64,000 bases of DNA, taken from NCBI GenBank assembly GCA_041651155.1, contig JBAZJU010000001.1, positions 91,932-155,931 of the forward strand, in the 5' to 3' direction. This stretch comes from Patescibacteria group bacterium (lineage in GTDB: Bacteria; Patescibacteriota; Patescibacteriia; CAIXNZ01). Every line of letters starts with the position of its first letter. Positions within the stretch are counted from its first letter, which is position 1. The notes beneath the pieces were generated by a model, which saw nothing but the letters and a program-made list of their open reading frames with translations, ran no database searches and was not told the DNA's origin. Positions 336 to 62,684 of this stretch are shown piece after piece. The translations under genes and the position numbers were made by a program.

Positions 336-564
336 TATCGTTCCTTTTTAATTATGCGAATTTCTGGATTAATGGCAGATGCCCACTTCCTTTGTTAAAA
401 ATAATGCGAATAAACTACGAATATTTCTAGACAAAAAATTGTTTAGAAATGGGCAATCTTTTTATTTTTATGGTATAATTATGGCAGTTGAAAGTTAGAA
501 AGTTTATAAAGTTGAAAGATATACTTTATGAACTTTCTACTTTTTAACTTTTAACTAAAATTCT

Positions 565-906
565 ATGACATTGCCAAATGTTAATGACCCTCAGGTCAAA
601 AAAGACATTGAGGAAAACAAATTAATTGCAGCTATCGGTTACATCGGGATTTTGTGTTTAATCCCGTTGCTTCTAAAGCCAAAATCTCAGTTTGCTAAAT
701 TTCACGGTAAGCAGGGTTTAATTTTAGTTATCGGAGAATTGATTAATATGATCATAGGAATTGTCCCAGTGATTGGCTGGTTTTTGGCCATGATCGGAGG
801 CATTGCTTTAATTATTTTAAGCATCTTGGGAATTTTAAAATCGCTTAACGGTGAATATTGGGAAATGCCGTATTTGGGAGAATATGCGAAGAAGATTAAT
901 ATTTGA
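565..906 (+). CDS. DUF4870-like small membrane protein
   Basis: Two to three TM helices and a KFHGKQGL-type motif characteristic of DUF4870. A TGgTATAAT extended -10 lies upstream at about 470-478. Confidence 0.5.
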   Translation: MTLPNVNDPQVKKDIEENKLIAAIGYIGILCLIPLLLKPKSQFAKFHGKQGLILVIGELINMIIGIVPVIGWFLAMIGGIALIILSILGILKSLNGEYWEMPYLGEYAKKINI

Positions 907-954
907 CGGATTAACACGAATTTAAGACGAATTTAAAATAAAAATAAAAAAAAT

Positions 955-1365
955 ATGGAATTGCTCTATAAAGATTTAAGCTACAGAGTTGTTGGCCTAT
1001 GTATAGAAATTTATAACACTTACGGCTCTTATCATAAAGAAATAGTTTACCATCGCTTGATAAAAGAGAAATTAGATTTAAATGGTATTGATAATATTTC
1101 TGAACCAAAAATTGACTTATATTCACAAGATTCTGGTAAGATTCCTGGTTGTTATGTGCCAGATTTTTTGATTGATAATAAAATTATATTAGAAATAAAA
1201 GCAACTAGAGTAAATTGTTTTAGAGATGAAGAGCAATTAATCCATTATTTAAAAGTTAGCAATTATGAGTTGGGGTATTTAATAAATTTTGGTTTAAGAA
1301 GTTTATATTTTAAAAGGTTAATATATACTAATGATAAAAAGAAAATCCATACAAAAATTCGTTAA
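955..1365 (+). CDS. GxxExxY family protein (PD-(D/E)XK nuclease-like)
   Basis: The N-terminus reads LSYRVVGLCIEIYNTYGSY..E.VY, which fits the TIGR04256 GxxExxY pattern. This family is common in CPR genomes. Confidence 0.5.
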   Translation: MELLYKDLSYRVVGLCIEIYNTYGSYHKEIVYHRLIKEKLDLNGIDNISEPKIDLYSQDSGKIPGCYVPDFLIDNKIILEIKATRVNCFRDEEQLIHYLKVSNYELGYLINFGLRSLYFKRLIYTNDKKKIHTKIR

Positions 1366-1397
1366 ATTTGTTTTAATTAGCGTTAATTAGTATAGCA

Positions 1398-2855
1398 ATG
1401 AAGCGTACAAAAATCGTTTGCACCATCGGCCCCAGTTCCAATAGTGAAAAGGTTTTAACCCAGTTAATAAAGGCCGGCATGAATGTCGCCAGGCTTAATT
1501 TTTCCCATGGAACATATCCGGAACATTCAAGAATTATTAAGTTAATCCGTAAGTTGAGTAAAAAATTTGATCAGCCAATTACCATACTCCAAGACCTCCA
1601 AGGACCAAGGATTCGCGTTGGATTTATTCCTGGCAAAGGTATTTTTTTAAAAACTGGCAAAAAAATTATTTTAACCACTGATTTGCAGGCTAAAACTATT
1701 TTGCCAGGGGAGCGTGTGCCTTCAAAAATTCCAGTCACTTATGACAAATTGCATTTGGATGTGAAAAAAGGCGAGCCAATTCTCCTGGCTGACGGAGTTG
1801 TAAAGTTGAAGGTTGTAAAGTTGAGCGGTAAGGATATTGAATGCTTAATTTTAAATGATGGGTTTATCAGCTCGCAAAAAGGAATTAATTTGCCTGAAAC
1901 AAGACTTTCCATTCCGACAATTACAACTAAGGATAAAAAGGATTTAGAGTTTGGCATTAAAAATAATGTTGACATGGTGGCCTTGTCTTTTGTGCGTACT
2001 GCCAAAGATGTTCAGGATTTGAAAAATATTATCCGCAAATTGGAAATTAAATTCCAGGGCAAAAAATCTCTGCCTACCCAGATCATTGTGAAAGTTGAAA
2101 AAAGGGAAGCAGTGAAAAATTTTAATCAGATTTTAAAAATTACTGATGGCGTGATGGTGGCGCGCGGTGATTTGGGAATTGAAATGCCAGAAGAAGATGT
2201 GCCTTTGGCGCAAAAAATGATGATTGAAAAATGTTTGAATGCTGCCAAGCCGGTCATTGTGGCTACGCAAATGTTGGAATCAATGATTCTAAATCCGCGG
2301 CCCACGCGGGCTGAAGTTTCAGATGTGGCTAATGCGGTGATTGATCACACTGATGCGGTTATGCTTTCTGGCGAAACAGCCGAAGGTAAGTATCCTATTG
2401 AATCTGTAAAGACTATGGCCATAATTTCCGAACGCACTGAAAAATCAAAATATGATGATTTCCAATTCCGTTTTATGTTCAAAGATAAGTTCCATACTGA
2501 TGATGCCATTTCCTCCAGCGCCAATTCTTTAGCTCGTAATTTAAAAGCCAAGGCAATTTTGGTCGCTTCGTTAACAGGTTATACGGGCCGCATTGTTTCA
2601 CGCTATCGTCCGGAACTGCCGATTTTAGTCACCACCAATAATGAAAAAGTCAGGCACCAATTAAATTTAAGCTGGGGAGTTGTGCCTTTTGTTTTGCCTA
2701 AATGCCAGACGATTGAAGATTTGATAGCCAAGGCTTTGATTTATATAAAAAATAAAAAATTCGTTAAAAGGGGTGATAAAATCATTATTATTGCCGGGTT
2801 TCCGCTTGGTAAAAGCGGGAATGTGAATTGGATAAAAATACAGGAAATTAAGTAA
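1398..2855 (+). CDS. pyk: pyruvate kinase
   Basis: TKIVCTIGPSS, NVARLNFSHG, the MVARGDLGIEMP active-site region and a C-terminal regulatory domain. Length 485 aa. Confidence 0.9.
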   Translation: MKRTKIVCTIGPSSNSEKVLTQLIKAGMNVARLNFSHGTYPEHSRIIKLIRKLSKKFDQPITILQDLQGPRIRVGFIPGKGIFLKTGKKIILTTDLQAKTILPGERVPSKIPVTYDKLHLDVKKGEPILLADGVVKLKVVKLSGKDIECLILNDGFISSQKGINLPETRLSIPTITTKDKKDLEFGIKNNVDMVALSFVRTAKDVQDLKNIIRKLEIKFQGKKSLPTQIIVKVEKREAVKNFNQILKITDGVMVARGDLGIEMPEEDVPLAQKMMIEKCLNAAKPVIVATQMLESMILNPRPTRAEVSDVANAVIDHTDAVMLSGETAEGKYPIESVKTMAIISERTEKSKYDDFQFRFMFKDKFHTDDAISSSANSLARNLKAKAILVASLTGYTGRIVSRYRPELPILVTTNNEKVRHQLNLSWGVVPFVLPKCQTIEDLIAKALIYIKNKKFVKRGDKIIIIAGFPLGKSGNVNWIKIQEIK

Positions 2856-2950
2856 TTGGTAATTAGTAAATGGTAATTGGTAAATTGTAAAATTCATTTG
2901 TTAGTAATTAGTAATTTGTAGTTGGTAAACAGTAAATTGAATAATTATTT
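2856..2950. repeat. Degenerate tandem GGTAATT(A/G)GTAAAT-type repeats upstream of the four-helix-bundle gene; an inverted copy lies at 3338-3370
   Basis: ggtaattagtaaatggtaattggtaaattg is upstream. The reverse complement of the downstream ttactaataaccatttaccaattac gives agtaattggtaaatgg. Confidence 0.6.
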
Positions 2951-2956: not shown

Positions 2957-3337
2957 ATGAAAATTACAAAGGTTGAGGATTTAAATGTTTGGCAGGAAGC
3001 AAGATTGTTTTGTAATGATATTTACGATTTGATTAAAAATTTTCCAGCCGACGAAAAATATAATATAGTTAGGCATTTAAGAGAAAATGCTCGTGGCATT
3101 CCGGCAAATATTGCTGAAGGATTTTATAGATATCATTATCAGGATAGTATAAGGTTTTATTTAATCGCCAGAGGTTGTATTGGTGAAATGAAGAGCGATT
3201 TATATATTAGTTTGGATAGGGGATATATTACTAAAGAAAAATTTGAAGATTTAAATAATAAAATTGAAAAAATTTTAATAATGTTAAATGGGATGATTAA
3301 ATCCACCAAAAATCAAATAAAAAACACCAATAACTAG
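2957..3337 (+). CDS. four-helix-bundle protein (TIGR02436, 23S rRNA intervening-sequence protein family)
   Basis: LRENARGIPANIAEGFYRY...FYLIARGCIGEMKSDLYIS motif set. Length 126 aa. Confidence 0.75.
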   Translation: MKITKVEDLNVWQEARLFCNDIYDLIKNFPADEKYNIVRHLRENARGIPANIAEGFYRYHYQDSIRFYLIARGCIGEMKSDLYISLDRGYITKEKFEDLNNKIEKILIMLNGMIKSTKNQIKNTNN

Positions 3338-3424
3338 TTACTAATAACCATTTACCAATTACTTTCCCCCAATTTTAGCCCCAAACGGGTTTTTTTTATT
3401 TTCAAATCTTATCCACACCTAAAA

Positions 3425-11545: not shown

Positions 11546-11628
11546 TCAGTAAAAGCACCAAACAACAAATTCCAAATATCAAATAAACACCAAAAAATAA
11601 ATAACAAATTACAAACAAAAATAAAAAT

Positions 11629-11901
11629 ATGGAGAGAAAATTCGATTTAGAAGATCGCACTTTAATTTTTGGAAAAGAAATAATACATTTGTGTAAATCT
11701 TTGCCTGCAAATACTATAAATTTCAGGTTAATTGATCAAATTATACGTTCAGGGACTTCTATGGGAGCGAATTATAGAGAGGCGAATGAAACAGAAACCA
11801 AAAAAGATTTCAAACATAAAATAAGGATTTGCTTAAGAGAGTGTAAAGAAACGGGATATTGGTTGGAACTTATTGAAGAAGCTAACCCCCCCCCCTTTTA
11901 A
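11629..11901 (+). CDS. four-helix-bundle protein (TIGR02436), apparently frameshifted at a C10 homopolymer; the C-terminus continues in the +1 frame to about 11970
   Basis: The N-terminus is paralogous to the 46668 protein (DLEDRTL.F.K..L.LCK...GANYREAN). The ORF stops as ...EANPPPF. The +1 frame then encodes KEKLRKLLQENNELRKIFASILIKSE, matching the paralog's C-terminus ...QLARIFASIGAKK. Confidence 0.6.
   Translation: MERKFDLEDRTLIFGKEIIHLCKSLPANTINFRLIDQIIRSGTSMGANYREANETETKKDFKHKIRICLRECKETGYWLELIEEANPPPF
11886..11895. repeat. C10 homopolymer tract at the frameshift point
   Basis: cccccccccc sits in an otherwise AT-rich genome, exactly where the reading frame of the four-helix-bundle gene breaks. 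Confidence 0.8.
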
Positions 11902-12009
11902 AGAAAAATTAAGGAAACTTCTACAAGAGAATAATGAGTTAAGAAAAATATTCGCTTCTATTTTAATAAAGTCTGAATAGTTTGAAATTTTGATGCTTGT
12001 TATTTAAGA

Positions 12010-12058
12010 TTTATTTGGCCTACGCCAACCGTAGTTGGCTTCGGCCAACGAAGGTTGG
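12010..12058 (+). repeat. Triple-palindrome element, copy A (gccaac-cgta-gttggc-ttcg-gccaac-gaag-gttgg)
   Basis: Three overlapping 5-6-bp hairpins with tetraloops cgta, ttcg and gaag. Same architecture as copies at 15166 and 46455 but with a different stem sequence. Confidence 0.6.
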
Positions 12059-12208
12059 AGCTTGGTATTTGCTATTTGGTTATTAAAAAGAGGGAGCTTT
12101 TAACCGAAGAACAATATAATTACATTGTTTCTGAACTGAACAAGTTACCTAAAGAAATTAATACTCTGGTAAAATTTACCCGCGAACGTATGTCAATTTA
12201 ATCATTTA

Positions 12209-15066: not shown

Positions 15067-15165
15067 TTTTTTTTAGAAAATATATAAGAACCCTGTTTCG
15101 CTAGAAGCAGGGTTTTTTGGTATAATAAGGTTAAATAACAAATGACAAAAATCAAATAACAAACC

Positions 15166-15203
15166 TTTGTTTGCTGTAGCAAACTACGGTTTGCGAAGGC
15201 AAA
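15166..15203 (+). repeat. Triple-palindrome element, copy B (gtttgc-tgta-gcaaac-tacg-gtttgc-gaag-gcaaa)
   Basis: Near-identical to copy C. It is preceded by A/C-rich AAATAACAAA-type repeats at 15131-15165. Confidence 0.6.
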
Positions 15204-15239
15204 AAAATATCAAATAATAAAATCCAAAATTTTAAATTT

Positions 15240-17591
15240 ATGTCTGAATTGATTTTGAAATTCTCCCAAGTATCCATAAAAGATGTTGGCAAAGTAGGTG
15301 GCAAAAATGCCAGCTTGGGTGAAATGTTTAGGAATTTAATTAAAAAAGGGATTAGTATTCCTGATGGTTTTTGTACTACTGCCAAGGCATGGCAGTATTT
15401 TTTGGAGTATAATTCTTTAAAAAAGCCTATTAAGGAATCTTTGCTAAAGTTAGATAAGAATAATCTGGAAAGTTTGGAATTAACTGGCGCTAAGATCAGA
15501 AATTTAATCATGCGCGGCAGTATTCCGCCAGATTTGGCTGCTGAAATTATTGCAAGTTATAAATTACTTTCCAAGAAATACATGGTTTTAAATGTTGACG
15601 TGGCAGTGCGTTCAAGCGCCACTGCTGAAGATTTGCCAGGCGCTTCTTTTGCCGGCCAGCAGGAATCATATTTAAATATCAAAGGCGAGAAGGAACTACT
15701 TTTAGCCATTAAAAGATGTTTTGCCTCATTGTATACAAATCGCGCAATTTCATATCGCGAAGACCAGGGTTTTAATCATTTGAAAGTTTATTTATCTGTT
15801 GGCGTCCAAAAAATGATCCGTTCTGATTTGGCTTCAGCTGGCGTGATGTTTACGATTGATACAGAATCTGGCTTTAAAGATTTAATAATTATTAATTCTT
15901 CATATGGTTTGGGAGAAAATGTTGTGAAAGGCAGAGTCACGCCTGATGAATTTTTTATCTGGAAATCAAATTTGAAAATTATTAAAAAAGAGCTCGGCAG
16001 TAAAAAAAGAAAATTAATTTACACTAATAATTTAAAAAATCCAACAAAAAATATTTTGGCTGCGCCAAATGAGCGCCAGCAGTTTTCTTTAAAAAATTCT
16101 GAGATTTTGCAGCTGGCAAAATGGGCGCAGATTATTGAGCGCTATTACAAACGTCCCATGGATATTGAGTGGGCCAAAGACGGCCAGGCAAATAAATTGT
16201 ACATTGTCCAAGCACGGCCTGAGACAGTTGAGTCTTTGGTTAATCCCAATATTTTAGAACAATATATTTTGCCCAAAAGAGGGAAAGCAATTTTAAGTGG
16301 GGAAGCCATAGGTCAGAAAATTGCCACTGGCAAAGTTAAAATTATTAAAAATGTTAAACAATTAGGTGCTTTTAACCCGGGCGAGATATTGGTGACTGAA
16401 ATGACTGATCCTGATTGGGAGCCGGTTATGAAAAAAGCCGCTGGCATTATTACTAATTCAGGCGGGAGAACCTGCCATGCGGCCATTGTTTCGCGCGAAT
16501 TGGGCGTGCCGGCAATTGTGGGCAGTAAAATTGCCACCAAAATTTTAAAAGACGGGCAGAAAATTACTTTAAGCTGCGCTGAAGGTGAAAATGGTCGTGT
16601 TTACGATGGATTTTTACCATTTAAAATCAAAAAGACTGATTTGCGCAAGGTAAAAAAGCCTAAGGTAGATATTATGATGAATCTTGGCGACCCAACCCAG
16701 GCTTTTAAATATTCTTTTTTGCCCAATGAGGGTATTGGTTTGGCGCGTTTGGAGTTTATAATAACCAACTATATTAAAATCCATCCCTTAGCGCTCACGA
16801 ATTATCACAAATTGCCGGCTAATTTAAAAAAGCAGATTAATGACTTAACTTCTGCCTATAAAAACAAAACTGATTTTTATGTAGAGCAATTAGCGTTTGG
16901 TATTGCCCAGATTGGAGCTGCTTTTTATCCCAAAGATGTGATTGTGCGCTTTTCTGATTTTAAAACAAATGAATATGCCAATTTAATCGGCGGGGAATTA
17001 TATGAGCCAAAAGAAGCAAATCCAATGATTGGCTGGCGTGGCGCCTCAAGATATTATGATCCGAAATTCAAACCCGCTTTTGATTTGGAATGCCAGGCCA
17101 TAAAAAAGGTCAGAAATGAAATGGGTTTAACCAATATCAAGGTGATGGTGCCGTTTTGCCGCACCTTAGAAGAAGCTAGAAAAGTTATCCAAATATTAAG
17201 GCAAAACGGCCTCAGGCAAGGCCAAAATGGTTTACAGGTTTATGTCATGGTTGAGATTCCCAGCAATGTAATTTTGGCAGATGAATTTGCTAAAATTTTT
17301 GATGGGTTTTCAATTGGTTCCAATGACTTAACTCAATTAACTTTAGGTTTAGACCGGGACTCGGAATTAATTTTACAAATCGGTGATGAAAGAAACGAGG
17401 CAGTAAAAAAACTGGTCATTCAGGCAATTAAATCAGCTAAAAGGGCTAAGATAAAAATCGGCATTTGCGGCCAAGCACCGTCTGATTTCCCTGATTTTGC
17501 CCGCTTTTTAATGGAAGAAGGAATTGATAGCATTTCTTTAACTCCAGATACGGTAATAAAAACACGCCTTGATTTAAGCAAAAAGAGGTGA
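15240..17591 (+). CDS. ppsA: phosphoenolpyruvate synthase (pyruvate, water dikinase)
   Basis: An N-terminal VGGKNASLGEM ATP-grasp motif and the PEP-utilising mobile-domain motif GGRTCHAAIVSRELGVPAIVG. The C-terminal PEP/pyruvate domain is present. Length 783 aa. Confidence 0.85.
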   Translation: MSELILKFSQVSIKDVGKVGGKNASLGEMFRNLIKKGISIPDGFCTTAKAWQYFLEYNSLKKPIKESLLKLDKNNLESLELTGAKIRNLIMRGSIPPDLAAEIIASYKLLSKKYMVLNVDVAVRSSATAEDLPGASFAGQQESYLNIKGEKELLLAIKRCFASLYTNRAISYREDQGFNHLKVYLSVGVQKMIRSDLASAGVMFTIDTESGFKDLIIINSSYGLGENVVKGRVTPDEFFIWKSNLKIIKKELGSKKRKLIYTNNLKNPTKNILAAPNERQQFSLKNSEILQLAKWAQIIERYYKRPMDIEWAKDGQANKLYIVQARPETVESLVNPNILEQYILPKRGKAILSGEAIGQKIATGKVKIIKNVKQLGAFNPGEILVTEMTDPDWEPVMKKAAGIITNSGGRTCHAAIVSRELGVPAIVGSKIATKILKDGQKITLSCAEGENGRVYDGFLPFKIKKTDLRKVKKPKVDIMMNLGDPTQAFKYSFLPNEGIGLARLEFIITNYIKIHPLALTNYHKLPANLKKQINDLTSAYKNKTDFYVEQLAFGIAQIGAAFYPKDVIVRFSDFKTNEYANLIGGELYEPKEANPMIGWRGASRYYDPKFKPAFDLECQAIKKVRNEMGLTNIKVMVPFCRTLEEARKVIQILRQNGLRQGQNGLQVYVMVEIPSNVILADEFAKIFDGFSIGSNDLTQLTLGLDRDSELILQIGDERNEAVKKLVIQAIKSAKRAKIKIGICGQAPSDFPDFARFLMEEGIDSISLTPDTVIKTRLDLSKKR

Positions 17592-44543: not shown

Positions 44544-45113
44544 AAAATGCCTACCAATATCTTTAAAGAAAAATATCTATTATTCCGGGCGAAAAACAAG
44601 GATTCAGAAGCATTTGCCCGCGTGTACGATTTTTATGTGGATAGGATCTACCGCTTTGTTTTTTTTAAAATAAATCGGCCAGATGAAGCTCAGGATATTA
44701 CTTCTGAAGTTTTTTTAAAAACCTGGCAATATATTATTGATGGCAAAAAGATCAATAATTTAAATGCGCTATTTTACAAAATCGCCAGGAATTTAGTAAT
44801 TGACCATTATCGCAAGGCCAGCGCTCAGGATGTGTCGCTGGAGAATATAAAAGCAGATGCGGAGGAAATAAAAGAACTTGCTGATGAGCAAATAAATAAA
44901 ATTGATAAAAAGATACAGGTTGAAAAAATAGAAGAAAAATTAAGAGGGTTAAAAGATGATTATCGCGAAATAATAATTTTAAGATATATTGAAGACTTAT
45001 CAATCGGCCAGATCGCGGAAATAGTGGAAAAGAAAAAAGGCGCGGTGCGGGTTATTTTATATAGGGCGCTGAATGCTTTGAAAGACCTAATGGGTGAAGC
45101 TGATAAAAAATAA
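44544..45113 (+). CDS. ECF-type RNA polymerase sigma factor (sigma-70 family, regions 2 and 4)
   Basis: Region 2 YRFVFFKI..DEAQDITSEVFLKTW and LVIDHYRK. Region 4 LSIGQIAEIVEKKKGAVRVILYRALNALK. The ORF track starts at 44508. Confidence 0.8.
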   Translation, partial: KMPTNIFKEKYLLFRAKNKDSEAFARVYDFYVDRIYRFVFFKINRPDEAQDITSEVFLKTWQYIIDGKKINNLNALFYKIARNLVIDHYRKASAQDVSLENIKADAEEIKELADEQINKIDKKIQVEKIEEKLRGLKDDYREIIILRYIEDLSIGQIAEIVEKKKGAVRVILYRALNALKDLMGEADKK

Positions 45114-46470
45114 AATTTACAACTCAAATAAAACAATGAAGAAACGCGACCTTCTCAAACAAATTAATAATTTGAAAAAAACAATTAAGCCTGATTCAGC
45201 CTGGCAAAAGGCAAATCGGGAGATTTTGCTGTCTCAAATCAAATCCCAGACCAGCGCAGAATTTTCTTATAGCCACAAAATAATGCTGCAGAATTTATTT
45301 CTGGCTGTTTATAAGCCGGTTGGCAGCATGATTTTAATTTGCAGCGTTTTATTCGGCGCCTGGATTGCCAGCGTGGGGGCGACTAAAAACAGCCAGCCGG
45401 GCGATTTATTATACGGCTTGAAATTAACCGCAGAAAGAATGCAGGTTAATTTGACTATGAATGATGAAAAACGTACTAATTTAGAAATCGCTTTTGCTGA
45501 AAGAAGGTTAGATGAAATCAAGCAGACTACTGCCAAAGACGGTTCAAACAAAAACAAGAAGAATCTGGAAGTAACCCTGAAAAATTTTCAGGAAAGCATA
45601 AATAATGTCAAAAGCAATCTGGCCAAATTAGAAGCGACTGATAAGCAGGCTGCTTTGAAAGTTGCTGATTTAATTGATGAAAAGACCAAGTCTTATGTCG
45701 GGATATTAAAAGATCAACAAGATCAAAATCCGCAATTTGTGGCGAGTGAAAACGCTGAACAGGCTATTTCAGATTCCAAAGCAACAGGCAATAAAGCTTT
45801 AAGCGTGATTTTGGAAGAGTTTGAAGCCGGCAATAGCGGCTTGAAAGTTGATGATTTAAGGCAAAAAATTAATACCAGAATTGATGATTTGGATAAAAAC
45901 ATAGAATCAGCCAAAAGTGATATCCCCCTGATTATTGAGAATAAGAAAATAGCTGATGAAGCGGCCGCTGCCAAAGCTCTGGCGGATAAAGAAGCTGCCA
46001 AAAAAGCCGAGGAAGAAGCCGCCGCTAAGGTTTTGGCGGATAAAGAAGCCTTGGCGAAAACGGAGCTAAGCTCCGACGCTTCGGAGCTTAGCTCCGTTCA
46101 GGAAGTTGCTAATACCAATACTAATACATCACCAGAACCGGTTAAAGAAGCCCAGCCAGAATTACAGAACACTAATAGTTCAGCTGAAATCAAGCAAGAT
46201 GAGCAAATAGTTAGCCAGCCTGAAGAGGTTTTGCCAACGATTGATGAGATTAAAAATAAGCCTGCAGAAGCCGCAGCCTTATTGGTCAGAGCGCGTGATT
46301 ATGTAAAAAGCGGTTCTGTGAGCCAGGCTTTTGATCTGGTAAAACAGGCTGATGACATTATGACTTTGGTCAATAAAGTGATTAAGGCAAATAGTGTTTA
46401 TTTAGAAGCACCGGAAGAAGTGAAGGTAGGTGAACCGGTTGATGTAATGACGAACCTTCGTTTGCAGTAG
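45094..46470 (+). CDS. Putative anti-sigma factor (single-pass membrane, coiled-coil, Ala/Lys/Glu-rich)
   Basis: It overlaps the sigma gene by 20 nt, suggesting translational coupling. A TM helix lies at about residue 76-96. The periplasmic part is helical and low-complexity. Confidence 0.45.
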   Translation: MKLIKNKIYNSNKTMKKRDLLKQINNLKKTIKPDSAWQKANREILLSQIKSQTSAEFSYSHKIMLQNLFLAVYKPVGSMILICSVLFGAWIASVGATKNSQPGDLLYGLKLTAERMQVNLTMNDEKRTNLEIAFAERRLDEIKQTTAKDGSNKNKKNLEVTLKNFQESINNVKSNLAKLEATDKQAALKVADLIDEKTKSYVGILKDQQDQNPQFVASENAEQAISDSKATGNKALSVILEEFEAGNSGLKVDDLRQKINTRIDDLDKNIESAKSDIPLIIENKKIADEAAAAKALADKEAAKKAEEEAAAKVLADKEALAKTELSSDASELSSVQEVANTNTNTSPEPVKEAQPELQNTNSSAEIKQDEQIVSQPEEVLPTIDEIKNKPAEAAALLVRARDYVKSGSVSQAFDLVKQADDIMTLVNKVIKANSVYLEAPEEVKVGEPVDVMTNLRLQ

Positions 46471-46492
46471 CAAACTACGGTTTGCGAAGGCA
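46455..46492 (+). repeat. Triple-palindrome element, copy C, overlapping the stop codon of the 45094 gene
   Basis: ccttcgtttgcagtagcaaactacggtttgcgaagg, with an outer ccttcg/cgaagg stem. It is followed by A/C-rich repeats at 46493-46660. Confidence 0.6.
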
Positions 46493-46667
46493 AATGACAA
46501 AGCATCAATAACAAAATAAATTCAAATAATTAAATTTAAATAACAAAACTTGAATAACAAAAAAATAATCAATGACAAAATCTAGATAACCAAAAAATAA
46601 GAAATAAATAAAAATTTCCGCCTCTGGCGGAAAATAATAAAACAAAAATAAAAATTAAAGTAAAAAT

Positions 46668-47009
46668 ATGGATTTTGATTTGGAGGATAGGACATTAAAA
46701 TTTGCGAAAAATTGCCTTGATTTGTGCAAGCAATTGCAGAAGGATGTTATAAGTTTGGAGTTGGTTAAGCAATTTGTGAGAGCGTGCTGTTCAGTCGGGG
46801 CAAATTATAGAGAAGCAAATGACACAATAACTAAAAAGGATTTTTTACATAAAATTGCGATTTGTCGTAGGGAGTCTAAAGAAAGTAAGTATTGGTTGGA
46901 ATTGTTGCTGCACACTAACCCCAATTTTAAACTGCAAATTGAACCTCTGATTGACGAATCCCACCAACTAGCCCGCATCTTTGCCAGCATCGGCGCGAAA
47001 AAGAAGTAG
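46668..47009 (+). CDS. four-helix-bundle protein (TIGR02436)
   Basis: A paralog of the 2957 and 11629 genes. It is flanked by A/C-rich repeats upstream and their inverted T/G-rich copies at 47010-47140. Confidence 0.75.
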   Translation: MDFDLEDRTLKFAKNCLDLCKQLQKDVISLELVKQFVRACCSVGANYREANDTITKKDFLHKIAICRRESKESKYWLELLLHTNPNFKLQIEPLIDESHQLARIFASIGAKKK

Positions 47010-47118
47010 TTTAGTTATTTGATATTAAGTATTAGTTATTTAAATTTTGAGTTTATTTTGGTTATTAAGTATTAGGTATTTGGTATTCTTTTGGTATTTT
47101 ATATTGGTCATTTGGTAT

Positions 47119-47458
47119 TTGATAAAATTTACAATTTAATTAATAATAGCTGGTAAATCGCCAAGGGGATTATGCAGGGTTTCCTTGGCGGTTTATCCGC
47201 TCGTTCTCTGCTTAATTGCAGAGGACACAGCTTTGGATTTTAAAGATCCGAAGCAAGCTAATTAATGCTCTTTGTTTGAAAGCTAGGTTAAAGTATGAAG
47301 ATTAAGGCCTGGATTTCAAAGGGTAAAGGTCGATTTCTGGTTTAACCAGAAGACCTTTTTGGGAACAGGATTACTTTCAAGCCTCTAAGAGGCAAGAAAG
47401 AAACTTAACTTCCTACTCTGGCGATCGGGCAAGGAGTTTAAGAAAGGACAAGTTTAAT
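47119..47458 (+). promoter_or_regulatory. Candidate promoter (TTGATA-N17-AATAAT) plus ~300-nt GC-enriched structured 5' leader of the S-layer-like gene; contains an ECF-like GGAAC-N17-TCTAA motif at 47362-47388
   Basis: Multiple short hairpins (cgccaagg/ccttggcg, ctctgc/gcagag, gcctc/gaggc). No ORF. Long leaders are typical of S-layer genes. Confidence 0.35.
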
Positions 47459-50400
47459 ATGATTAAGAAAATTTTTACTGTTGGCGTGGTAGTATTGACC
47501 ATTTTTTGGGCTGTCGGTCTAGCAGCATTTGTTCCAACCGCTCAGGCTACAACTTTTAGCTCTGGCGATTTGATCAAAGCTTCTTTACCAGCAGTTTATT
47601 ACTACGGTGCTGACGGCAAAAGGTATGTGTTCCCAAACGAACCAACATACAAAACCTGGTATGCTGACTTCTCCAGCGTGAAAACTATCACTGACGGAGA
47701 ATTAGCCACCATTCAAATCGGCGGCAATGTCACTAACAAACCAGGCGTTAAAATGGTGAAAATCACCACTGATCCAAAAGTATACGCTGTGGCTGCAAAT
47801 GGCACATTGAGGTGGGTAACCACTGAATCACTTGCTGCTTCTTTATACGGTTCTAACTGGGGAGCAATGATTCTTGATGTGTCTGATGCTTTCTTTGTTA
47901 ATTACTCTATTGGCGCTCAAATCAGCAATGTTTCTGATTATTCTCCATCTGCTGCAACTGCTGCTGCTCAATCAATCAATGTTGATAAGGGCTTAGCAGG
48001 CGCAACAACAACTGGCGGTAATTTAAATGTTTCTTTAGCATCTGATACACCAGCTGCTTCTACAGTTGCTGGCGGTGCTGCTGCTAATATGTCAAAGATC
48101 ATTTTAGCTACTGGTTCCGCAGCTGTTAAAGTTAAATCTTTATACATCACTCGTTCAGGCTTAAGCGCAAACGATGATGTTGAAAATGTTAAATTAATCA
48201 ATGTTGCTGGCGCTACTGTTGGCGATGTTGGTTCATTTGGTTCAAACAGCAAAGCATTAATTTCTTTTGTTCCATCATTAGAAATTGCTGCTAATACTTC
48301 AGTCTCATATTATGTCCGTGCTAGTATCAGATTAGGCGCTCCTGCTGGCAACACGGTTGCTTTGGGCGTTGCATTAAATACTGATGTAGTATTGGAAGCA
48401 GGTACTGTTAGCGGTGCATTCCCAGTCGTTGGCAACTACATGTCAATTGTAGCTTTAGCTAACATTGGCAGTGCTACTGTTGGCCAAGATGCAGCAGTTG
48501 TCGATACTATGCCAGATGCTGGCGCAAAAAGAGTTCAGGTCTCTGAATTTTACGTCATGGCTGGTGCAAATGAAGATTTGACTATTGAAGCTATGAGTTT
48601 AATTGAAGCTGGTTCAGCAAATACTGCTGATTCAGCTAATATTGAATTATACAGTTTGACAGAAGGTAGAACATTGGGCACTGCTGCTTCATGGGATGCA
48701 AATTCTCGTGTTACTGTTGGTAGCATGAATGTTGTTATTCCAAGAGGTGGTAAACACATTTTCCAGGTTTATGCTGATATCGTAAGCGGTTCAGGCAACG
48801 TTATTGATGTTGATTTAACTGATGGTACTGATGTTTTAGTAACTGTTAAGGGTAATACCTATGGTTTTTATCTTTCTCCAATAGTTGCTGTGACTCCTCC
48901 ATTAAACTGGGATGGTCAAGGTATTCCAGGAGTAGGTGGTCAAACCGTAGGCGCTGGTTTATTAAATGTTACTAAATCAACTTCTTCTCCAGCTACTGGT
49001 AATATTGCTCGCGCTTCTGATCAGGCAATTGCAACTTATGATTATGAAGTACGAGGTGAATCTATTAAGATTACTTCAACTATGGTTACAATTACAGAAG
49101 GTGCTGCATTTAATAATGTTGTTCCAAACTGGAATAGAGTTGCTAATGTGAAATTAGTTGATGAAAACGGTTTAGTTGTTGCGGGCCCAAAGAATTTAAC
49201 AAATGTATCTGTCGGCGCTGCCGGTGGTGTTACAACTGTTACTTTCAATGAAACTTATGTTGTACCAACTGGTACTCATAAATACACTGTTAAAGTTGAT
49301 GTTTTGAGCAATGCTCCAGCTGGCGCAACAGCTACTTTGGTAGCTAGTTTAACTCCAAGCGCTGATATTACAGCAACTGGGGTTACAACTCGTGAAAGTG
49401 TAGTTCCAACGCCTGCTGTTGCTGTCGCTGGCAATGGTGAGACTATCTTGGGTGTAGCATTAACTGTTACCAATTTAACTCAACCAGCTGCTAGATCAAT
49501 TGCTGTTGGTACTCAGAATTTTGTCTGGGCAACTACTTCATTAGATGCAACTGCTTCTGGTGAAGATGTTCGTGTTTCATCTGTTACAGTTTTGGATACT
49601 TTAGGTGTTGGTAATACTGATGATATGACTGCTTTGCAGAATCTTTCAATCTGGGCAGATTTAACATCAGCTAGTTCTACTCGTGGTGATGCTTATGAAA
49701 CAAAGGTTTCTAATAATGAGCAGCCAACACTTGCTACTACTAAAGCAATTAACTTAACACAAGTTATCACTGTTCCAAAAGGAACTTATGTTAAGATTGC
49801 TGTTGTTGGTAATTTATCAACCTTAGCATTTGTTACAGATACTCACCAGATTAGTATTGCTGCGCCTATAACAGCAACTGGTAAATCAACAGGCAATGCT
49901 CCTGTTATCCCAGCTATTATTACTTTGGGACAGGTAATGCTTGTATCTGCTTCTGGTACTTTAACTGCGTCATTAGATGCTTCTACTCCATTAGCTAATA
50001 TTGTAGTTAGTGGTGCACAAAAGGTTACTGTTGCTGCTTTCAAATTAACAGCTGATAATATTGAAGCTATTGAACTTGATGATCTTTTGGTTAATGATGT
50101 TGCGGCAATTGCTACAAATCCAGTTGCATCAAATTGGTACTTGTATGCAAATAGTCGCGCTGATGGCGGTTCAATTGCTGATCCGGTTGCTGTAGCTGCT
50201 GGCGGTTTTGCGCCACAATTCATTTTAGCTGATAATACAATTGTTGTTCCATCTAATAGCAGTGTTGTCTTGACTCTTAAAGCAGACATCGCCCCTGTTG
50301 ATGGCGCTACTGTAATTAATGGTGATGATTTAATCCCAGAAATTACTGCAGCTGCAAGCATAAATGCTACAGGCGTGTCTTCTGGTGTCCCAGCCACCAT

Positions 50401-50956
50401 CTTTAATGGTCTTGGCTGGTTCCCAAAAACTGCTGCTACAGATTTGGCATTTGCTTCAAAACCAACTATCAGCCTAAATGCTTCTTCTCCAAGCGGTGCC
50501 TTAGTGCCAAGCGCTAATACTTTAGTAGCCATCTTTAATATTGCTGCTGATTCAGCTGATGATATTTCCTTTGATGACGCTGGAAGCGCAGGCACAAAAT
50601 TAGTAGTTACTATGGCTGAAGCTTGTACTGGTGCTGGTGGCGCTACAAATATGATTTTGAAAGACGAAGGTGGCACAGTTTTATCTACCGCAACAGAAGC
50701 TGCTGATGCATGTACTGTTGGCAATAAGACATTTGAAGTCTGGACTAACCCATTAGTTATTGCTAAAGGTACCACCAAGAAAGTATATGTCTATGGTGTT
50801 ACTACTAGTGCAACAACTGCTGGTGATAATTTACAGGCTTCTATTACAGATGCTGCTGCTGGCAATGTTACTTGGGGTATTAATGGTGCAGGTGCTTTTG
50901 CAACTGCTGCCATTACTGCTCGTGGTTCAATTTATGCCAATGCACTTTCTAGATAA
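47459..50956 (+). CDS. Large secreted surface (S-layer-like) protein, 1165 aa, with the N-terminal shared ~125-aa domain
   Basis: A signal peptide (AFVPTAQA), then GDLIKASLPAVYYYGADGKRYVFPN...LRWVTTESLAASLYGSNW. A/T/S/G/V-rich with few Cys. Paralogous to 54421. Confidence 0.8.
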   Translation: MIKKIFTVGVVVLTIFWAVGLAAFVPTAQATTFSSGDLIKASLPAVYYYGADGKRYVFPNEPTYKTWYADFSSVKTITDGELATIQIGGNVTNKPGVKMVKITTDPKVYAVAANGTLRWVTTESLAASLYGSNWGAMILDVSDAFFVNYSIGAQISNVSDYSPSAATAAAQSINVDKGLAGATTTGGNLNVSLASDTPAASTVAGGAAANMSKIILATGSAAVKVKSLYITRSGLSANDDVENVKLINVAGATVGDVGSFGSNSKALISFVPSLEIAANTSVSYYVRASIRLGAPAGNTVALGVALNTDVVLEAGTVSGAFPVVGNYMSIVALANIGSATVGQDAAVVDTMPDAGAKRVQVSEFYVMAGANEDLTIEAMSLIEAGSANTADSANIELYSLTEGRTLGTAASWDANSRVTVGSMNVVIPRGGKHIFQVYADIVSGSGNVIDVDLTDGTDVLVTVKGNTYGFYLSPIVAVTPPLNWDGQGIPGVGGQTVGAGLLNVTKSTSSPATGNIARASDQAIATYDYEVRGESIKITSTMVTITEGAAFNNVVPNWNRVANVKLVDENGLVVAGPKNLTNVSVGAAGGVTTVTFNETYVVPTGTHKYTVKVDVLSNAPAGATATLVASLTPSADITATGVTTRESVVPTPAVAVAGNGETILGVALTVTNLTQPAARSIAVGTQNFVWATTSLDATASGEDVRVSSVTVLDTLGVGNTDDMTALQNLSIWADLTSASSTRGDAYETKVSNNEQPTLATTKAINLTQVITVPKGTYVKIAVVGNLSTLAFVTDTHQISIAAPITATGKSTGNAPVIPAIITLGQVMLVSASGTLTASLDASTPLANIVVSGAQKVTVAAFKLTADNIEAIELDDLLVNDVAAIATNPVASNWYLYANSRADGGSIADPVAVAAGGFAPQFILADNTIVVPSNSSVVLTLKADIAPVDGATVINGDDLIPEITAAASINATGVSSGVPATIFNGLGWFPKTAATDLAFASKPTISLNASSPSGALVPSANTLVAIFNIAADSADDISFDDAGSAGTKLVVTMAEACTGAGGATNMILKDEGGTVLSTATEAADACTVGNKTFEVWTNPLVIAKGTTKKVYVYGVTTSATTAGDNLQASITDAAAGNVTWGINGAGAFATAAITARGSIYANALSR

Positions 50957-51044: not shown

Positions 51045-51259
51045 TGGAAGAATGGTGGTTTGGGAGGAATTTATCAACCTCCCCCAATCCCCCTCCTTTT
51101 CTAAGGAGGGGGTATGGAGGTTATCATGACCTAAGGTGCAGGGCTTTGGGTTTTGTTTTTTGGGGAAGATCGTGGAGGGAGTGGGACGGTTGATTTGTTT
51201 TGTTTAGGGATTTATGGTATTATAAAGGGAGCAATTATTTAATATTCAATTTAAAAAAT

Positions 51260-51517
51260 ATGAAAGAAAAAAATAAATTACAATTTAATATTATTTTTAG
51301 GCCTGAAGAAGAAGGTGGATTTACTGCAATAGTTCCGTCTTTGCCAGGTTGTATTACTTACGGCAAAGATTTAAAAGAAGCTAAAAAAATGGCGATTGAT
51401 GCAATTTATGGCTATATTGAATCAGTAAAAAAACATAAAGAAGAAATACAGTCAGATGAGGAAAGTTTTATTAGTTTAATTAGGCTTCCTCAAAAGCACT
51501 CTAGACTTTATGCCTAA
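51260..51517 (+). CDS. hicB: HicB family antitoxin (UPF0150 N-domain)
   Basis: EEGGFTAIVPSLPGCITYGKDLKEAKKMAIDAI. The ORF-track start at 51200 lies inside the conserved promoter repeat, so the real start is 51260. Confidence 0.65.
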   Translation: MKEKNKLQFNIIFRPEEEGGFTAIVPSLPGCITYGKDLKEAKKMAIDAIYGYIESVKKHKEEIQSDEESFISLIRLPQKHSRLYA

Positions 51518-51734: not shown

Positions 51735-51948
51735 CTCGTCTCGGCTCGCCTCGCGAAGCGGGCTTCGCTGGACATAGATATCGTTTTTGTCCCTTGAGTG
51801 CCTTCGCCGAAGTCGGATGAAAAACACAAATCTCGCCATTTTTTAAAGGGCGTTTTTTGTTTTGCTCTGTAACACATTTGGTGCAGGGCTTTGGTTTTTA
51901 CGATAAAATTAAGGTCGGAAACCCCATAAATTTGGGTTTTATGCCGTA

Positions 51949-52968: not shown

Positions 52969-53238
52969 CGGACTTCAGTCCGCGAATGACCCCATTACCT
53001 TACGGGGACTTCCACCGTCGCTCTGTGAGTTATGGCGGACAAGAAAGTCCCCTGTAATGATTTTTCTTTGTTAAGGTCCTCTGTAATGATTTCTCTTTAT
53101 TTTTATGATAAAATTAAGGTGGAAAACCCCATAAATTTGGTTTAAGGAGGGGGTGTTTACAGGAGTTTTTTATTTGTTTTGTTTAGGGATTTATGGTATT
53201 ATGAAAGGAGCAATTATTTAATATTTTATTTAAAAAAT

Positions 53239-53508
53239 ATGAAAGAACAATCCTGCCTGCCGGCAGGCAGGTTAAAAATTTCAAAATTTGGCAGGCAATT
53301 GCCTATTGTTATTGAAAAAGGGGAAGATGGTTTTTATATTGTAGAATGCCCGCTTTTTGACGGTTGTTTTACACAGGGTAAAACAATTGATGAGGCGCTT
53401 AGAAATATTAAAGAAGTCATATCTTTGATTTTGGCAGAAAAAGACGCCAGAAATACTTTGAAGGAATATAAATCAACAGAATTTAGTTTGCATACCATTA
53501 CCGTTTAA
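53239..53508 (+). CDS. HicB-like antitoxin, second copy
   Basis: EDGFYIVECPLFDGCFTQGKTIDEALRNIKEVI. The ~80-nt upstream region (53164-53241) is a repeat of 51185-51262. Confidence 0.6.
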   Translation: MKEQSCLPAGRLKISKFGRQLPIVIEKGEDGFYIVECPLFDGCFTQGKTIDEALRNIKEVISLILAEKDARNTLKEYKSTEFSLHTITV

Positions 53509-53703: not shown

Positions 53704-53761
53704 AATATTTGAATATATATATTTACAGACCGCCTGGCCTTTCCGGGTGGTTTTGTTTTTT

Positions 53762-53795
53762 GCCCTGCACCAGTCGCTTCTCTCCGGTGCAGGGC
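53762..53795 (+). repeat. REP-like perfect hairpin gccctgcacc-N14-ggtgcagggc upstream of the transposase; solo half-copies occur at 51135 and 51890
   Basis: A 10-bp perfect inverted repeat. ggtgcagggcttt recurs three times in the island. Confidence 0.55.
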
Positions 53796-53846
53796 TTTAT
53801 ATTTTGGAAATTGAATGGTAAAATTAAGGTGGGGAAAAATAAAAAT

Positions 53847-54395
53847 ATGAATGAATTATTTAAAAATAAATATCGTACAGATTCCGTTCGTTTAAAAGAA
53901 TGGGATTATTCTTGGCCGGGTTTATATTATGTAACAATTTGTACCAAGGATCGTTTTTGTTGTTTAGGGGATGTAAAAAATGGTTTGGTTTATTTATCGG
54001 AAATTGGGAAAATCGTGTTTGAAGAATGGTTAAATACGCCAAAGATCAGACCGAATGTGGCGTTGGATGATTTTATTATAATGCCGAATCATATTCATGG
54101 AATTATAGAAATTAAAGAAATTGGGGATGTTGTAGAGACGCATTGCAATGCGTCTCTACAGAAACCCACATTCGGCCCGCAACGCAATAATTTGGCCTCA
54201 ATAATTCGTGGTTTTAAAGGGGTTGCCAAGAAAAGAATAAATCAAAAATTTGGAGAAAATTATTTTGCCTGGCAATCTGGCTATTACGAACACATTGTCC
54301 GGGACGAAGATGATTATGCCAGAATTAAAGAATATATTGCCTTAAATCCGATCAGATGGGAACTTGACAGAAATAATCCAAAAAATAGATCCTAA
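53847..54395 (+). mobile_element. IS200/IS605-family Y1 (HUH) transposase, RAYT-like
   Basis: The HUH motif PNHIHGIIEI and the catalytic Tyr region QSGYYEHIVRDEDDYARIKEYIALNPIRW. The ORF track extends it to 53709. No room exists for a right-end hairpin before the next gene. Confidence 0.7.
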
Positions 54396-61492: not shown

Positions 61493-62539
61493 ATGAAAAA
61501 AGTAGCAATCATTATTGTAAATTATAACGGTTTAGAATACTTATCAGCTTGTTTGACGAGTTTATTGAGTTTGGATTATCCAAAAGAAGATTATAAAGTT
61601 TTTTTTGTTGATAATGCCTCAATAGACAGTTCGGTTGATTTTGTTAGAAATAATTTTCCGCAGGCTGAAATTATTATTAATAATGAAAATTTAGGTTTTG
61701 CCGAAGGTAATAATATTGCCATAAAAAAGGCTCTGGCTGAAAACTTTGACTTTGTTCTTTTGATTAATCAGGATACGATTTCTGAACCTGATTTTTTAAA
61801 AAAGTTAGTTGAAGAAACAGCCAAGGCAGAAGATATTGGAGCGGTTCAGCCGCGCATCATGTTGTATCCCGAAAAAGATAAGGTTAATTCTTTGGGTAAT
61901 TCAATCCATTATTTAGGTTTTGGTTTTTCCAGCGGCGGTTATCAGAAATTTGCCGGCAATTTAGAGCTAAAAGAAATCGCCTATGCCAGCGGAGCCGCGG
62001 TTTTAATTAAAACAAATGTGCTGAAAAAAATCGGGCTTTTTGACCCTGATTTTTTTATGTACCATGAAGATTTAGATTTGGGCTGGCGCATGCGCTTGGC
62101 AGGATATAAAATTTTAGTGGTGCCTCAAGCTGTTATTTATCATAAATATGAATTTAGCAAAAGCATAAAGAAGTATTATTTTATGGAACGCAATCGCTTT
62201 ATTTGCCTTTTGGAAAATTATAAGCCGGGAACTTTGATTTTAATTTTTCCTGCCTGGCTGGCAATGGAAATCGGTTTGTTTTTGTTTTCACTTAAGTCAG
62301 GGTTTTGGAAAGAGAAATTGAGGGCTTATGGGTATTTTTTTAAATTTTCTGCGTGGCAGAAAATTGGAAGGGTAAGAAGGGAAAGAAGGGTAAAAAGGGT
62401 AAAAGGGGATAAGGAAATTGTGGAATTATTTACAGGCAAGATTGAATTTCAGGAATTAGATAGCTGGCTTTTAAATAAAGTTGTAAATCCCATCTTTAAT
62501 TTGTATTGGCAAGTAATTAAAAGTTTGATAATTTGGTAG
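61493..62539 (+). CDS. glycosyltransferase family 2
   Basis: VAIIIVNYNGLEYL...FFVDNAS... DxD-like region, a GT-A fold and C-terminal TM helices. Confidence 0.8.
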   Translation: MKKVAIIIVNYNGLEYLSACLTSLLSLDYPKEDYKVFFVDNASIDSSVDFVRNNFPQAEIIINNENLGFAEGNNIAIKKALAENFDFVLLINQDTISEPDFLKKLVEETAKAEDIGAVQPRIMLYPEKDKVNSLGNSIHYLGFGFSSGGYQKFAGNLELKEIAYASGAAVLIKTNVLKKIGLFDPDFFMYHEDLDLGWRMRLAGYKILVVPQAVIYHKYEFSKSIKKYYFMERNRFICLLENYKPGTLILIFPAWLAMEIGLFLFSLKSGFWKEKLRAYGYFFKFSAWQKIGRVRRERRVKRVKGDKEIVELFTGKIEFQELDSWLLNKVVNPIFNLYWQVIKSLIIW

Positions 62540-62632
62540 TAGATACAAATTTACAAATTAACTATAAATTATTACAAATATTCAGAAACCAATTCGTAGT
62601 TATATGTATCTGATTTGTAGATTTGTAACAAT
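62506..62632. repeat. 127-bp direct repeat, copy 1 (covers the GT2 stop codon and intergenic region); copy 2 at 62936-63062
   Basis: The copies differ at two positions. A diverged third remnant of the GT2 3' end (encoding NLYWRVVKLFIFW*) lies at 62640-62700. Confidence 0.75.
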
Positions 62633-62684
62633 AAAAAAATCGCCAATCCAGTTTTTAACTTGTATTGGCGAGTGGTGAAGCTTT

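Follow-up and report, generated by a model that had tools for sequence, protein, structure and literature searches.

Four-helix-bundle genes between inverted heptamer arrays in bacterial operons: candidate mRNA counterparts of 23S rRNA intervening sequences

The stretch of DNA analyzed here, referred to below as the window, comprises 64,000 nucleotides of contig JBAZJU010000001.1 from a Patescibacteria group bacterium (assembly GCA_041651155.1, positions 91,932 to 155,931, forward strand). It contains three small open reading frames (ORFs), named 46668, 11629 and 2957 after their first positions, that encode four-helix-bundle proteins of the family TIGR02436/PF05635, to which the S23p ORFs within the intervening sequences (IVSs) of 23S rRNA also belong. 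Each of the three is bracketed by one arm that is poor in G and another that is poor in C, the two being reverse complements of each other (Table 1), and we refer to arm, ORF and arm together as a cassette. A preliminary description of the window had pointed to inverted low-complexity flanks around all three genes, with a different motif but the same geometry at 2957, and had read the units as selfish mobile cassettes or as RNase III-processed units. The flanks are indeed reverse-complement pairs at 2957, 11629 and 46668, those of 2957 are of the GGTAATT type with reversed polarity, and the interpretation is partly supported by what follows. All of the cassettes in the window lie between protein-coding genes, and their neighbors include genes for pyruvate kinase, a DUF5667 protein and large secreted proteins.

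The three ORFs score 71 (46668), 76.6 (11629) and 95.3 bits (2957) against TIGR02436, which has a curated cut-off of 24, and 57, 63.1 and 107.6 bits, respectively, against PF05635 (cut-off 33.8), all above threshold. The 46668 protein is identical to the NCBI entry 'four helix bundle protein [Patescibacteria group bacterium]', and the 2957 ORF is of the subfamily nearest to the true IVS/S23p proteins. The two solved entries that were matched, by sequence only, 2RLD and 2GSC (XCC0516), were both deposited with five chains, and XCC0516 has been assigned as a pentamer (PMC4990558). The 11629 ORF contains a frameshift at a run of ten C residues (11886-11895), after which the +1 frame yields a full-length protein, and the protein repaired in this way has relatives at 86% identity. 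This run is absent from the relatives L005 and L111 (loci from other genomes carry L numbers), and the frameshift may mark a pseudogene or a switch prone to slippage, or else come from a sequencing error in the homopolymer. The two same-type proteins in the window are 53% identical. With a dN/dS of 0.08-0.09, the cassette ORF is under strong purifying selection.

Table 1. Positions of the cassettes and associated features in the window.
Feature	Position	Strand	Remarks
Four-helix-bundle ORF 46668, 113 aa	46668..47009	+	TIGR02436/PF05635; PDB 2RLD match 1.9e-15
5' arm of 46668 cassette, G-poor, A/C-rich, degenerate heptamer array	46493..46615	+	pairs with 47010-47125 in minimum free energy (MFE) fold
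3' arm of 46668 cassette, C-poor, T/G-rich heptamers	47010..47125	+	begins directly after stop codon; lag 7 = 0.57
Four-helix-bundle ORF 11629, frameshifted	11629..11981 (end ~11981)	+	TIGR02436/PF05635
5' arm of 11629 cassette, A/C-rich heptamers	11549..11628	+	lag 7 = 0.62; homologous to L111 5' arm
3' arm of 11629 cassette, T/G-rich	11982..12085	+	split by palindrome C (12015-12058)
Four-helix-bundle ORF 2957, 126 aa	2957..3337	+	TIGR02436/PF05635; PDB 2GSC (XCC0516) match 1.6e-13
5' arm of 2957 cassette, C-poor, GGTAATT/GGTAAAT/AGTAAAT-type heptamers	2845..2940	+	lag 7 = 0.64
3' arm of 2957 cassette, G-poor, complements 5' arm	3314..3366	+	overlaps final 24 nt of ORF; duplex z -4.1; MFE stem
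Fourth cassette, PD-(D/E)XK (PDDEXK_3) cargo	906..1395	+	arms 906-954 (ACGAATT-type) and ~1355-1392 (AATTCGT-type); ORF 955-1365
ORF-less heptamer hairpin: G/A/T arm, 10-12-nt loop, C/T/A arm	486..549	+	27 nt, 85%; -26.3 kcal/mol; after TATAAT box, before ORF 565-906
Solo A/C heptamer arm with palindrome B (15160-15203), 5' leader of PPDK-like gene	15131..15240	+	
Triple palindrome A, GC-rich, outer edge of 46668 5' arm	46452..46494	.	X-X'-X-X' pattern; holds stop codon of ORF 45094-46470
Small GC hairpin TTTCCGCCTCTGGCGGAAA in leader of 46668	46615..46633	.	absent from L002; terminator-like on minus strand only

The best inverted pair at 46668 joins 46532-46568 to 47011-47047 (37 nt, 78% complementarity), those at 11629 join 11595-11617 to 11994-12016 and 11572-11585 to 12066-12079, and that at 2957 extends over 51 nt (2850-2900 / 3314-3364), with sub-pairs of 30 nt at 83%. 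When all inverted repeats up to 900 nt apart in the window are ranked, the 2957 pair is first, the 46668 pair third and the 2957 sub-pairs fifth and sixth. The polarity at 2957, with G/T upstream and A/C downstream, is opposite to that at 46668 and 11629. The arms had been thought to consist of decamers, but their actual period by autocorrelation is 7/14 nt: of the five arms of the window that were tested, four have lag-7 values of 0.57-0.64, and the fifth, upstream of 46668, has its peak at lag 14 (0.61) rather than 7. The arms thus have the features of short tandemly repeated repetitive (STRR) sequences, namely tandem 7-nt units in intergenic positions, with autocorrelation peaks at lags 7, 14 and 21. 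Folding the RNA from flank to flank gives, for all three cassettes, an MFE structure in which a long-range stem encloses the ORF as a loop. Of the three loci, 2957 alone has arms that are sequence-specific when taken singly, with the duplex z-score of Table 1 measured against dinucleotide shuffles. A search of Rfam found no known RNA family at the cassettes and a PADLOC scan found no match to a defense system. At the 46668 locus, sites resembling promoters do not exceed the expectation from shuffled sequence, and a promoter belonging to the cassette itself was therefore rejected.

The generality of this arrangement was assessed with two samples. A metagenome scan with the 46668 protein gave 80 loci at 48-73% identity, 65-67 of them non-redundant. 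With the 2957 protein as query, species-representative genomes yielded 21 loci, which come from Bacteroidota, Nitrospirota, the candidate phyla radiation (CPR), Gammaproteobacteria and Verrucomicrobiota and include cultured isolates. Nearly all of the 80 loci of the 46668 type have an A/C arm that runs up to the ATG and a T/G arm that starts at the stop codon, while the 2957 type mostly has G-rich heptamers upstream and their C-rich complement downstream. Polarity is fixed per subfamily, C exceeding G in the aligned 5' arms of 52 loci and G exceeding C in 9 for the 46668 type, compared with 1 and 18, respectively, for the 2957 type. The motifs of the 46668 type differ from locus to locus and yet they pair (AATGACA/TGTCATT, AATAACC/GGTTATT, ATTACAA/TTGTAAT, ATTTCCA/TGGAAAT), and examples from the 2957 type are GCCGTTA/TAACGGC x14, GTGAGTT/AACTCAC and GGTGGGAAGG/CCTTCCCACC. 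The repeats can be perfect, as with 14 copies of TAACGGC in L087 and the GTGAGTT-type array in L089, and genomes that are GC-rich carry GC-rich heptamer arms (L087, L092, L094). The flanks are also conserved and inverted at the orthologous loci L002 (for 46668) and L005, L103 and L107 (for 11629).

The pairing between the two arms of a cassette can be separated from their shared composition by comparing each arm with its own partner and with the partners at other loci. Over 67 non-redundant loci, own partners share 13.2 reverse-complement 7-mers and cross-locus partners 6.5, and the corresponding duplex energies are -48.7 and -39.5 kcal/mol (permutation p<1e-4 for both). The flanks of 213 other genes of the same loci, used as controls, average 2.0 such 7-mers; for 77% of the four-helix-bundle genes the count lies above the control 95th percentile. 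A 7-nt period is present in both arms of both subfamilies and is absent from ORF interiors. Hence the flank-gene-flank geometry is real and general, being found in about 90 relatives from several phyla, and the pairing of the arms is locus-specific.

The cassettes are also tied to the transcription units in which they lie. The neighboring genes are on the same strand as a 46668-type cassette in 52 of 55 cases upstream and 46 of 49 downstream, and for the 2957 type in 19 of 20 and 17 of 20, respectively, giving a co-orientation of about 94%. In 10 loci the cassette occupies precisely the interval from the stop codon of a coxS-like gene to the Shine-Dalgarno sequence of a coxL-like gene, and if the cassette has no promoter, the coxL-like gene must be expressed by transcription through it. 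The predicted duplex is more stable in the sense than in the antisense strand at 51 of 67 loci (p=1e-5), and G-U-compatible mismatches outnumber those of the A-C type by 215 to 150 in the 46668 type (p=8e-4). In the cox group the 5' and 3' arms have accumulated 0.14 and 0.28 substitutions per site, respectively, against a dS of 1.17 in the enclosed ORF, a conservation 4-8 times that of synonymous sites, and a conserved 32-pair consensus stem is predicted. Heptamers resembling those of the arm run on into the first codons, which places the start codon in or beside the predicted helix. Arms, ORF and pairing are co-inherited and under selection.

The cassettes are variable among related genomes, as is seen at one syntenic site, downstream of a conserved gene of 239 aa (window 10826-11545). 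In the window this site is occupied by the 11629 cassette (cassette A), and in L103, L107 and L005 by a different one (cassette B), with the flanking protein 77-79% identical in L103 and L107 and the flanking DNA ~85% identical at the nucleotide level in L005. In L105 there is a third type (cassette C) with different arms (AATTTTC/GAAAATT), in L104 the ORF is absent and the 3' arm is left, in L109 there is a 34-nt spacer, and L106, L108 and L110 are without a cassette. The cassette B protein is 52% identical to that of A but 72-76% identical to that of the cassette at the other locus (46668, orthologue L002). A cassette homologous to A is found in L111 behind a different gene, its protein being 77% identical and both of its arms aligning. 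In L112 (1140-2115) three tandem arm pairs are joined by a recurring GGAGCTTAATATTGAAGCACC junction; the middle pair alone holds a four-helix-bundle ORF, and the outer ones enclose loops of 16 nt (ATGGTAGAGATTGAGG) and ~15 nt (CTTGGGAGAATTAAA). The variable contents of the site, together with the homologous cassette elsewhere, indicate that cassettes move, are replaced and decay as units, and over evolutionary time they have been gained, lost, swapped and duplicated in this way, in agreement with the variability that the preliminary description had anticipated. Given the 53% identity of the same-type proteins, movement within the window was not recent. The syntenic sites that are free of an intact cassette (L104, L106, L108, L109 and L110) have diverged or are filled by other repeats, such that no exact junction can be defined.

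The closest known relatives of these cassettes are the ORF-bearing IVSs of 23S rRNA, such as those of Coxiella burnetii (helix 45) and Leptospira, and the resemblance goes beyond the echo that had been suggested. The Coxiella IVS has a 28-bp terminal stem and three to four GACAGAT heptamers inside the stem and directly before the ATG of S23p, with RNase III cutting at the first repeat, and ORF-bearing IVSs are regarded as selfish and possibly once mobile (PMC4990558). Elements of both kinds contain an ORF of the S23p/PF05635 family within terminal inverted repeats that form a stem (according to the folds and the own-partner comparison), are without a strong ribosome-binding site of their own and are, or in the case of the cassettes probably are, part of a host transcript, and in Coxiella, as here, tandem heptamers immediately precede the start codon. 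They differ in that the IVS lies in a 23S rRNA helix (25 or 45) while the cassettes are in protein-coding operons, and in that the window arms, which measure tens to ~120 nt, exceed those of the IVS in length and are imperfect and low in complexity. The Coxiella IVS ORF is decaying, in contrast to the cassette ORF with its dN/dS of 0.08, and cleavage by RNase III is shown for the 23S IVS and only inferred for the cassettes. Heptamers in front of a member of the same family are also on record in Xanthomonas campestris, where a GGGAATC array beside bccP extends over the XCC0516 start codon and the genome has ~70 convergent inverted heptamer pairs (PMC4692102). These and the cyanobacterial GGGGA(C/T)T repeats are, like the cassette arms, tandem intergenic heptamers within transcripts, but they have been described as G-quadruplex-forming and have not been linked to the four-helix-bundle family, most of the pairs have no ORF between them, and the A/T-rich repeats of the window are unable to form G-quadruplexes. 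We found no description in the literature (open-access text) of the gene-plus-inverted-heptamer architecture outside rRNA, and an earlier notice of it is possible.

We propose, with somewhat more confidence than doubt, that the cassette behaves in mRNA much as an IVS does in rRNA, that is, as part of a read-through transcript in which a long-range RNA stem of an RNase III type insulates a passenger gene. The unit would consist of a degenerate heptamer array on the 5' side, a small ORF and the reverse-complement array on the 3' side, and its RNA would be made by read-through transcription of the host operon. With no G in one arm and no C in the other, self-folding of either would not be expected, and each would stay free for its distant partner. 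Once the 3' arm has been made, the two would anneal as a long imperfect stem whose loop is the ORF, insulating the passenger RNA from that of its host. Since the arms extend up to the start codon or across it, translation may be confined to the time before the 3' arm is transcribed. The stem would probably then be cut by RNase III, as in the homologous 23S rRNA IVS, for which the co-orientation, the sense-strand G-U excess and the lack of a promoter signal are indirect indications. No rnc gene is present among the window ORFs scanned, the window being 64 kb of the genome. The cassette would accordingly be an IVS-type element that resides in mRNA operons, new outside rRNA, and the ORF-bearing 23S IVSs of Coxiella and Leptospira would then be the rRNA-resident members of a much wider class.

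Several observations weigh against this model. The arms are ~70-75% complementary, with many bulges and often of unequal lengths, the 3' arm of L048 having roughly three times the length of the 5' arm, and the z-scores of the whole-cassette folds are modest (-1.1 to -2.8). Taken alone, 46668 and 11629 have pairing energies that are no better than those of dinucleotide shuffles (z -0.4 and -0.3), a comparison that is uninformative at these two loci because the shuffles retain the complementary composition; the significance of their arms comes from the family-wide cross-locus and control-gene tests. Covariation is thin, with double changes in 3 of the 32 pairs in a single orthologous group (coxS-coxL), where the arms are too conserved for it to be informative. 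A model based purely on a stem does not predict that polarity is strict within each subfamily. The 2957 type has no G-U excess (55 vs 63), and that of the 46668 type could stem from a transcription-associated C-to-T bias, and the complementarity itself could persist through DNA template switching between quasi-palindromic arms in the absence of an RNA function. The involvement of RNase III is a proposal by analogy with the 23S rRNA IVS.

That last route to complementarity, correction by template switching, is part of an alternative that we consider rather unlikely, in which the cassette is a DNA-level element. Here the heptamer arrays would form hairpins or cruciforms, in DNA that is single-stranded or supercoiled, that are substrates for the insertion, excision and exchange of cassettes, either by a trans-acting recombinase or HUH enzyme that recognizes structure and not sequence, as with the attC sites of integrons, or by recombination between simple-sequence arrays that resemble each other, and the RNA stem would be a by-product. 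It would account for the presence, absence and replacement of cassettes at one syntenic site, the same cassette with homologous arms in another gene context (L111), the array of three arm pairs with one ORF in L112, the solo arms in L104 and at 15131-15240 of the window, the ORF-less hairpins described below, and arm lengths that vary as is typical of slippage-prone repeats, and there is an IS200-like Y1 transposase ORF in the window. However, it does not predict the ~94% co-orientation or the sense-strand G-U excess, and the conservation of the cox-group arms well below dS suggests a function in place and not only during movement. Moreover, the termini share no conserved sequence, none of the syntenic sites recovered is cleanly empty, the window holds no near-identical copies and no recombinase lies beside any cassette examined. 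Integron cassettes are similar in having promoterless, small, co-oriented ORFs, sometimes in arrays, imperfect inverted repeats with conserved structure and variable sequence, and gain, loss and exchange at the level of the cassette. An attC site, however, is a single hairpin after the ORF with conserved core sites and it requires an integrase and attI, whereas here the arms bracket the ORF and the cargo is limited to one or two protein families; no integrase is among the listed neighbors of the cassettes, a platform for arrays is likewise absent, and core-site motifs were not specifically searched. MITEs (miniature inverted-repeat transposable elements) and other transposons with terminal inverted repeats (TIRs) are likewise small and intergenic, with inverted termini and presence/absence among relatives. 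Their termini are conserved across a family, whereas the arms of cassettes with cargo that is 50-70% identical differ widely and are internally repetitive heptamer arrays, and no near-identical multi-copy sets are seen here. No target-site duplication is recognizable at the syntenic sites, which are diverged or filled by other repeats and offer no exact junction.

It is less probable still that the heptamer arrays are putative binding sites, in DNA or RNA, for the encoded four-helix-bundle pentamer or PD-(D/E)XK protein, serving autoregulation, transcript protection or the spread of the element, such that their inversion would reflect two-sided binding rather than pairing. The motif does track the cargo, being AAT(G/A)AC(A/C)-like with the 46668 type and (A/C)CGAAT with PDDEXK_3 in three unrelated genomes, the polarity is fixed per subfamily and the arms are conserved in sequence as well as in pairing. 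There is also homology to Avd, the nucleic-acid-binding accessory protein of diversity-generating retroelements (DGRs), which has a homologous pentameric four-helix-bundle fold (PMC10053308) and for which the 2957 protein gives weak NF033474 and PF22296 hits. Against binding, the heptamers differ widely among proteins that are 50-70% identical (AATGACA, AATAACC, ATTACAA, ATTTCCA, CAAGAAA), ORF-less hairpins persist with no protein encoded beside them and locus-specific complementarity is unnecessary for binding. A DGR as such was considered and rejected, as the score for the Avd equivalog NF033474 is 20.7 bits with a cut-off of 80 and the window has no near-identical pair of the template repeat/variable repeat (TR/VR) kind; no reverse transcriptase is among the neighbors examined at the three cassettes, and the whole window was not screened for one. 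Lastly, low-complexity AT-rich intergenic DNA could be complementary in composition only and unrelated to the gene family, consistent with the equal pairing of shuffled and real arms at 46668 and 11629, the other low-complexity tracts in the window and the modest excess of exact 7-mer sharing at 46668 and 11629 over the median of 57 window genes (8 vs 3). Such coincidence is effectively excluded by the recurrence of the same geometry in ~90 loci, including GC-rich genomes with GC-rich heptamers, by control genes of the same loci that have no such flanks, by the own-partner statistics (p<1e-4) and by the 7-nt period and arm conservation below dS, and assembly artifacts are unlikely given the genomes of cultured isolates.

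Returning to the IVS-like model of a transcribed passenger gene within an insulating stem, it may extend to a second cargo and to hairpins that have no ORF. The fourth cassette of the window encodes a 'GxxExxY'-type protein (PF13366, 83.3 bits), and its long-range stem is present in both the MFE and the centroid fold. The ACGAAT-type motif of its arms also flanks PDDEXK_3 genes in L077 (220-642) and L100 (1279-1698), which are unrelated genomes, and this recurrence points to a second cargo family with the same cassette design. The hairpin at 486-549 was the sole match in the window in a strict ungapped scan for ORF-less hairpins, and gapped ones were recognized by eye and folding at 62543-62630 and in L104 and L109. 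In the latter two a full ORF-less heptamer hairpin stands before the PPDK gene (L104, 5425-5520; L109, 3496-3590), the site orthologous to 15131-15240. The arm at that position of the window had been described as an A/C flank without a gene and it is indeed a solo arm, but it is better read as the remaining half of an ORF-less hairpin. The hairpins at 486-549 and in L104 and L109 lie directly after TATAAT boxes in 5' leaders.

A still broader proposal, which we put forward tentatively and with more doubt than conviction, is that all of these belong to one unrecognized class of passenger cassettes in ordinary operons of many phyla, consisting of heptamer hairpins that are empty or hold a four-helix-bundle/Avd-like or PD-(D/E)XK nuclease-like ORF, that insulate themselves as RNA, and that spread and exchange, possibly by means of their own nucleic-acid-binding cargo. 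The classical ORF-bearing 23S IVSs would then be special cases, as would many unexplained heptamer repeats of bacteria, among them the GGGAATC pairs of Xanthomonas. Where IVSs and their S23p ORF come from, and what they do, has been asked since the early 1990s. If the ORF with its inverted heptamers resides mainly in mRNA operons, is under purifying selection and is exchanged as a unit, the IVS would represent one of the places where a general cassette has landed and not a peculiarity of rRNA. Such a cassette would explain the usual gene context of PF05635, a very large family without known function that has hundreds of close relatives per query here, and possibly that of PDDEXK_3, and it would provide a concrete hypothesis for bacterial heptamer repeats. 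Cultivable carriers (Xanthomonas with XCC0516 and Flavobacteriia isolates) make RNase III processing and mobility directly testable. In practical terms, the arms are likely to fragment short-read assemblies and to cause start codons to be miscalled.

The triple palindromes of the window had been placed at the flanks of the cassettes by the preliminary description, and copies A, B and C do exist where it located them, but they are not parts of the cassettes. Copy A is absent from the orthologous locus L002, comparison with L111 shows copy C to be 40 nt of cleanly inserted sequence, which L005 also lacks, and triple palindromes were found in no other fetched locus. As boundaries of the cassette they were therefore rejected, being absent from L002, L005, L103 and L111, and they are best read as separate, secondary insertions of ~40 nt into the arms. 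Copies A and B are 92% identical over 49 nt, all four arms of copy C have changed jointly from TTTGC/GCAAA to TTGGC/GCCAA, and the last 4 nt of each palindrome repeat the 4 nt that precede the element. Small GC palindromes have also landed in arms, as at 46615-46633, with CCTGCCTGCCGGCAGGCAGG being shared by the window and L021. The Y1 transposase ORF (53709-54392; PF01797, 27 bits) contains a 27+27-nt perfect-type palindrome at 54119-54172. It is a candidate transposase, of the type associated with repetitive extragenic palindromic (REP) sequences, for the small GC palindromes at 29032-29061, 46615-46633 and 53254-53273, and its presence suggests a system like REP and its associated tyrosine transposase (REP/RAYT).

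Several large secreted proteins encoded in the window share an N-terminal domain with 61-77% nucleotide identity (13904-14135, 47556-47787, 54518-54749, 57822-58053 and 59458-59556). The 46668 cassette lies directly upstream of one of these genes (47459-50956), and in L111 the homologous cassette is downstream of a gene with the same domain. A direct repeat of 139 nt with 96% identity (62506-62644 and 62936-63074), each copy of which takes in an ORF-less A/C-T/G hairpin as well as the last part of the gene before it, brackets a small minus-strand ORF for a cysteine-rich, zinc-ribbon-like protein, and this locus looks like an insertion with a long duplication. The window also encodes a transfer-messenger RNA (tmRNA; 30158-30549, minus strand) with the tag AKNLLSNVKAAFAFNLASVAV and a tRNA-Asp(GTC) (23014-23088, plus strand), the sole Rfam and ARAGORN matches in it. 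Two HicB-like antitoxin genes have duplicated leader/start regions (51190-51271 / 53169-53250, 93%; 51895-51938 / 53100-53143, 91%), and together with the adjoining HicA, nucleotidyltransferase and HEPN genes they make up a small toxin-antitoxin cluster.

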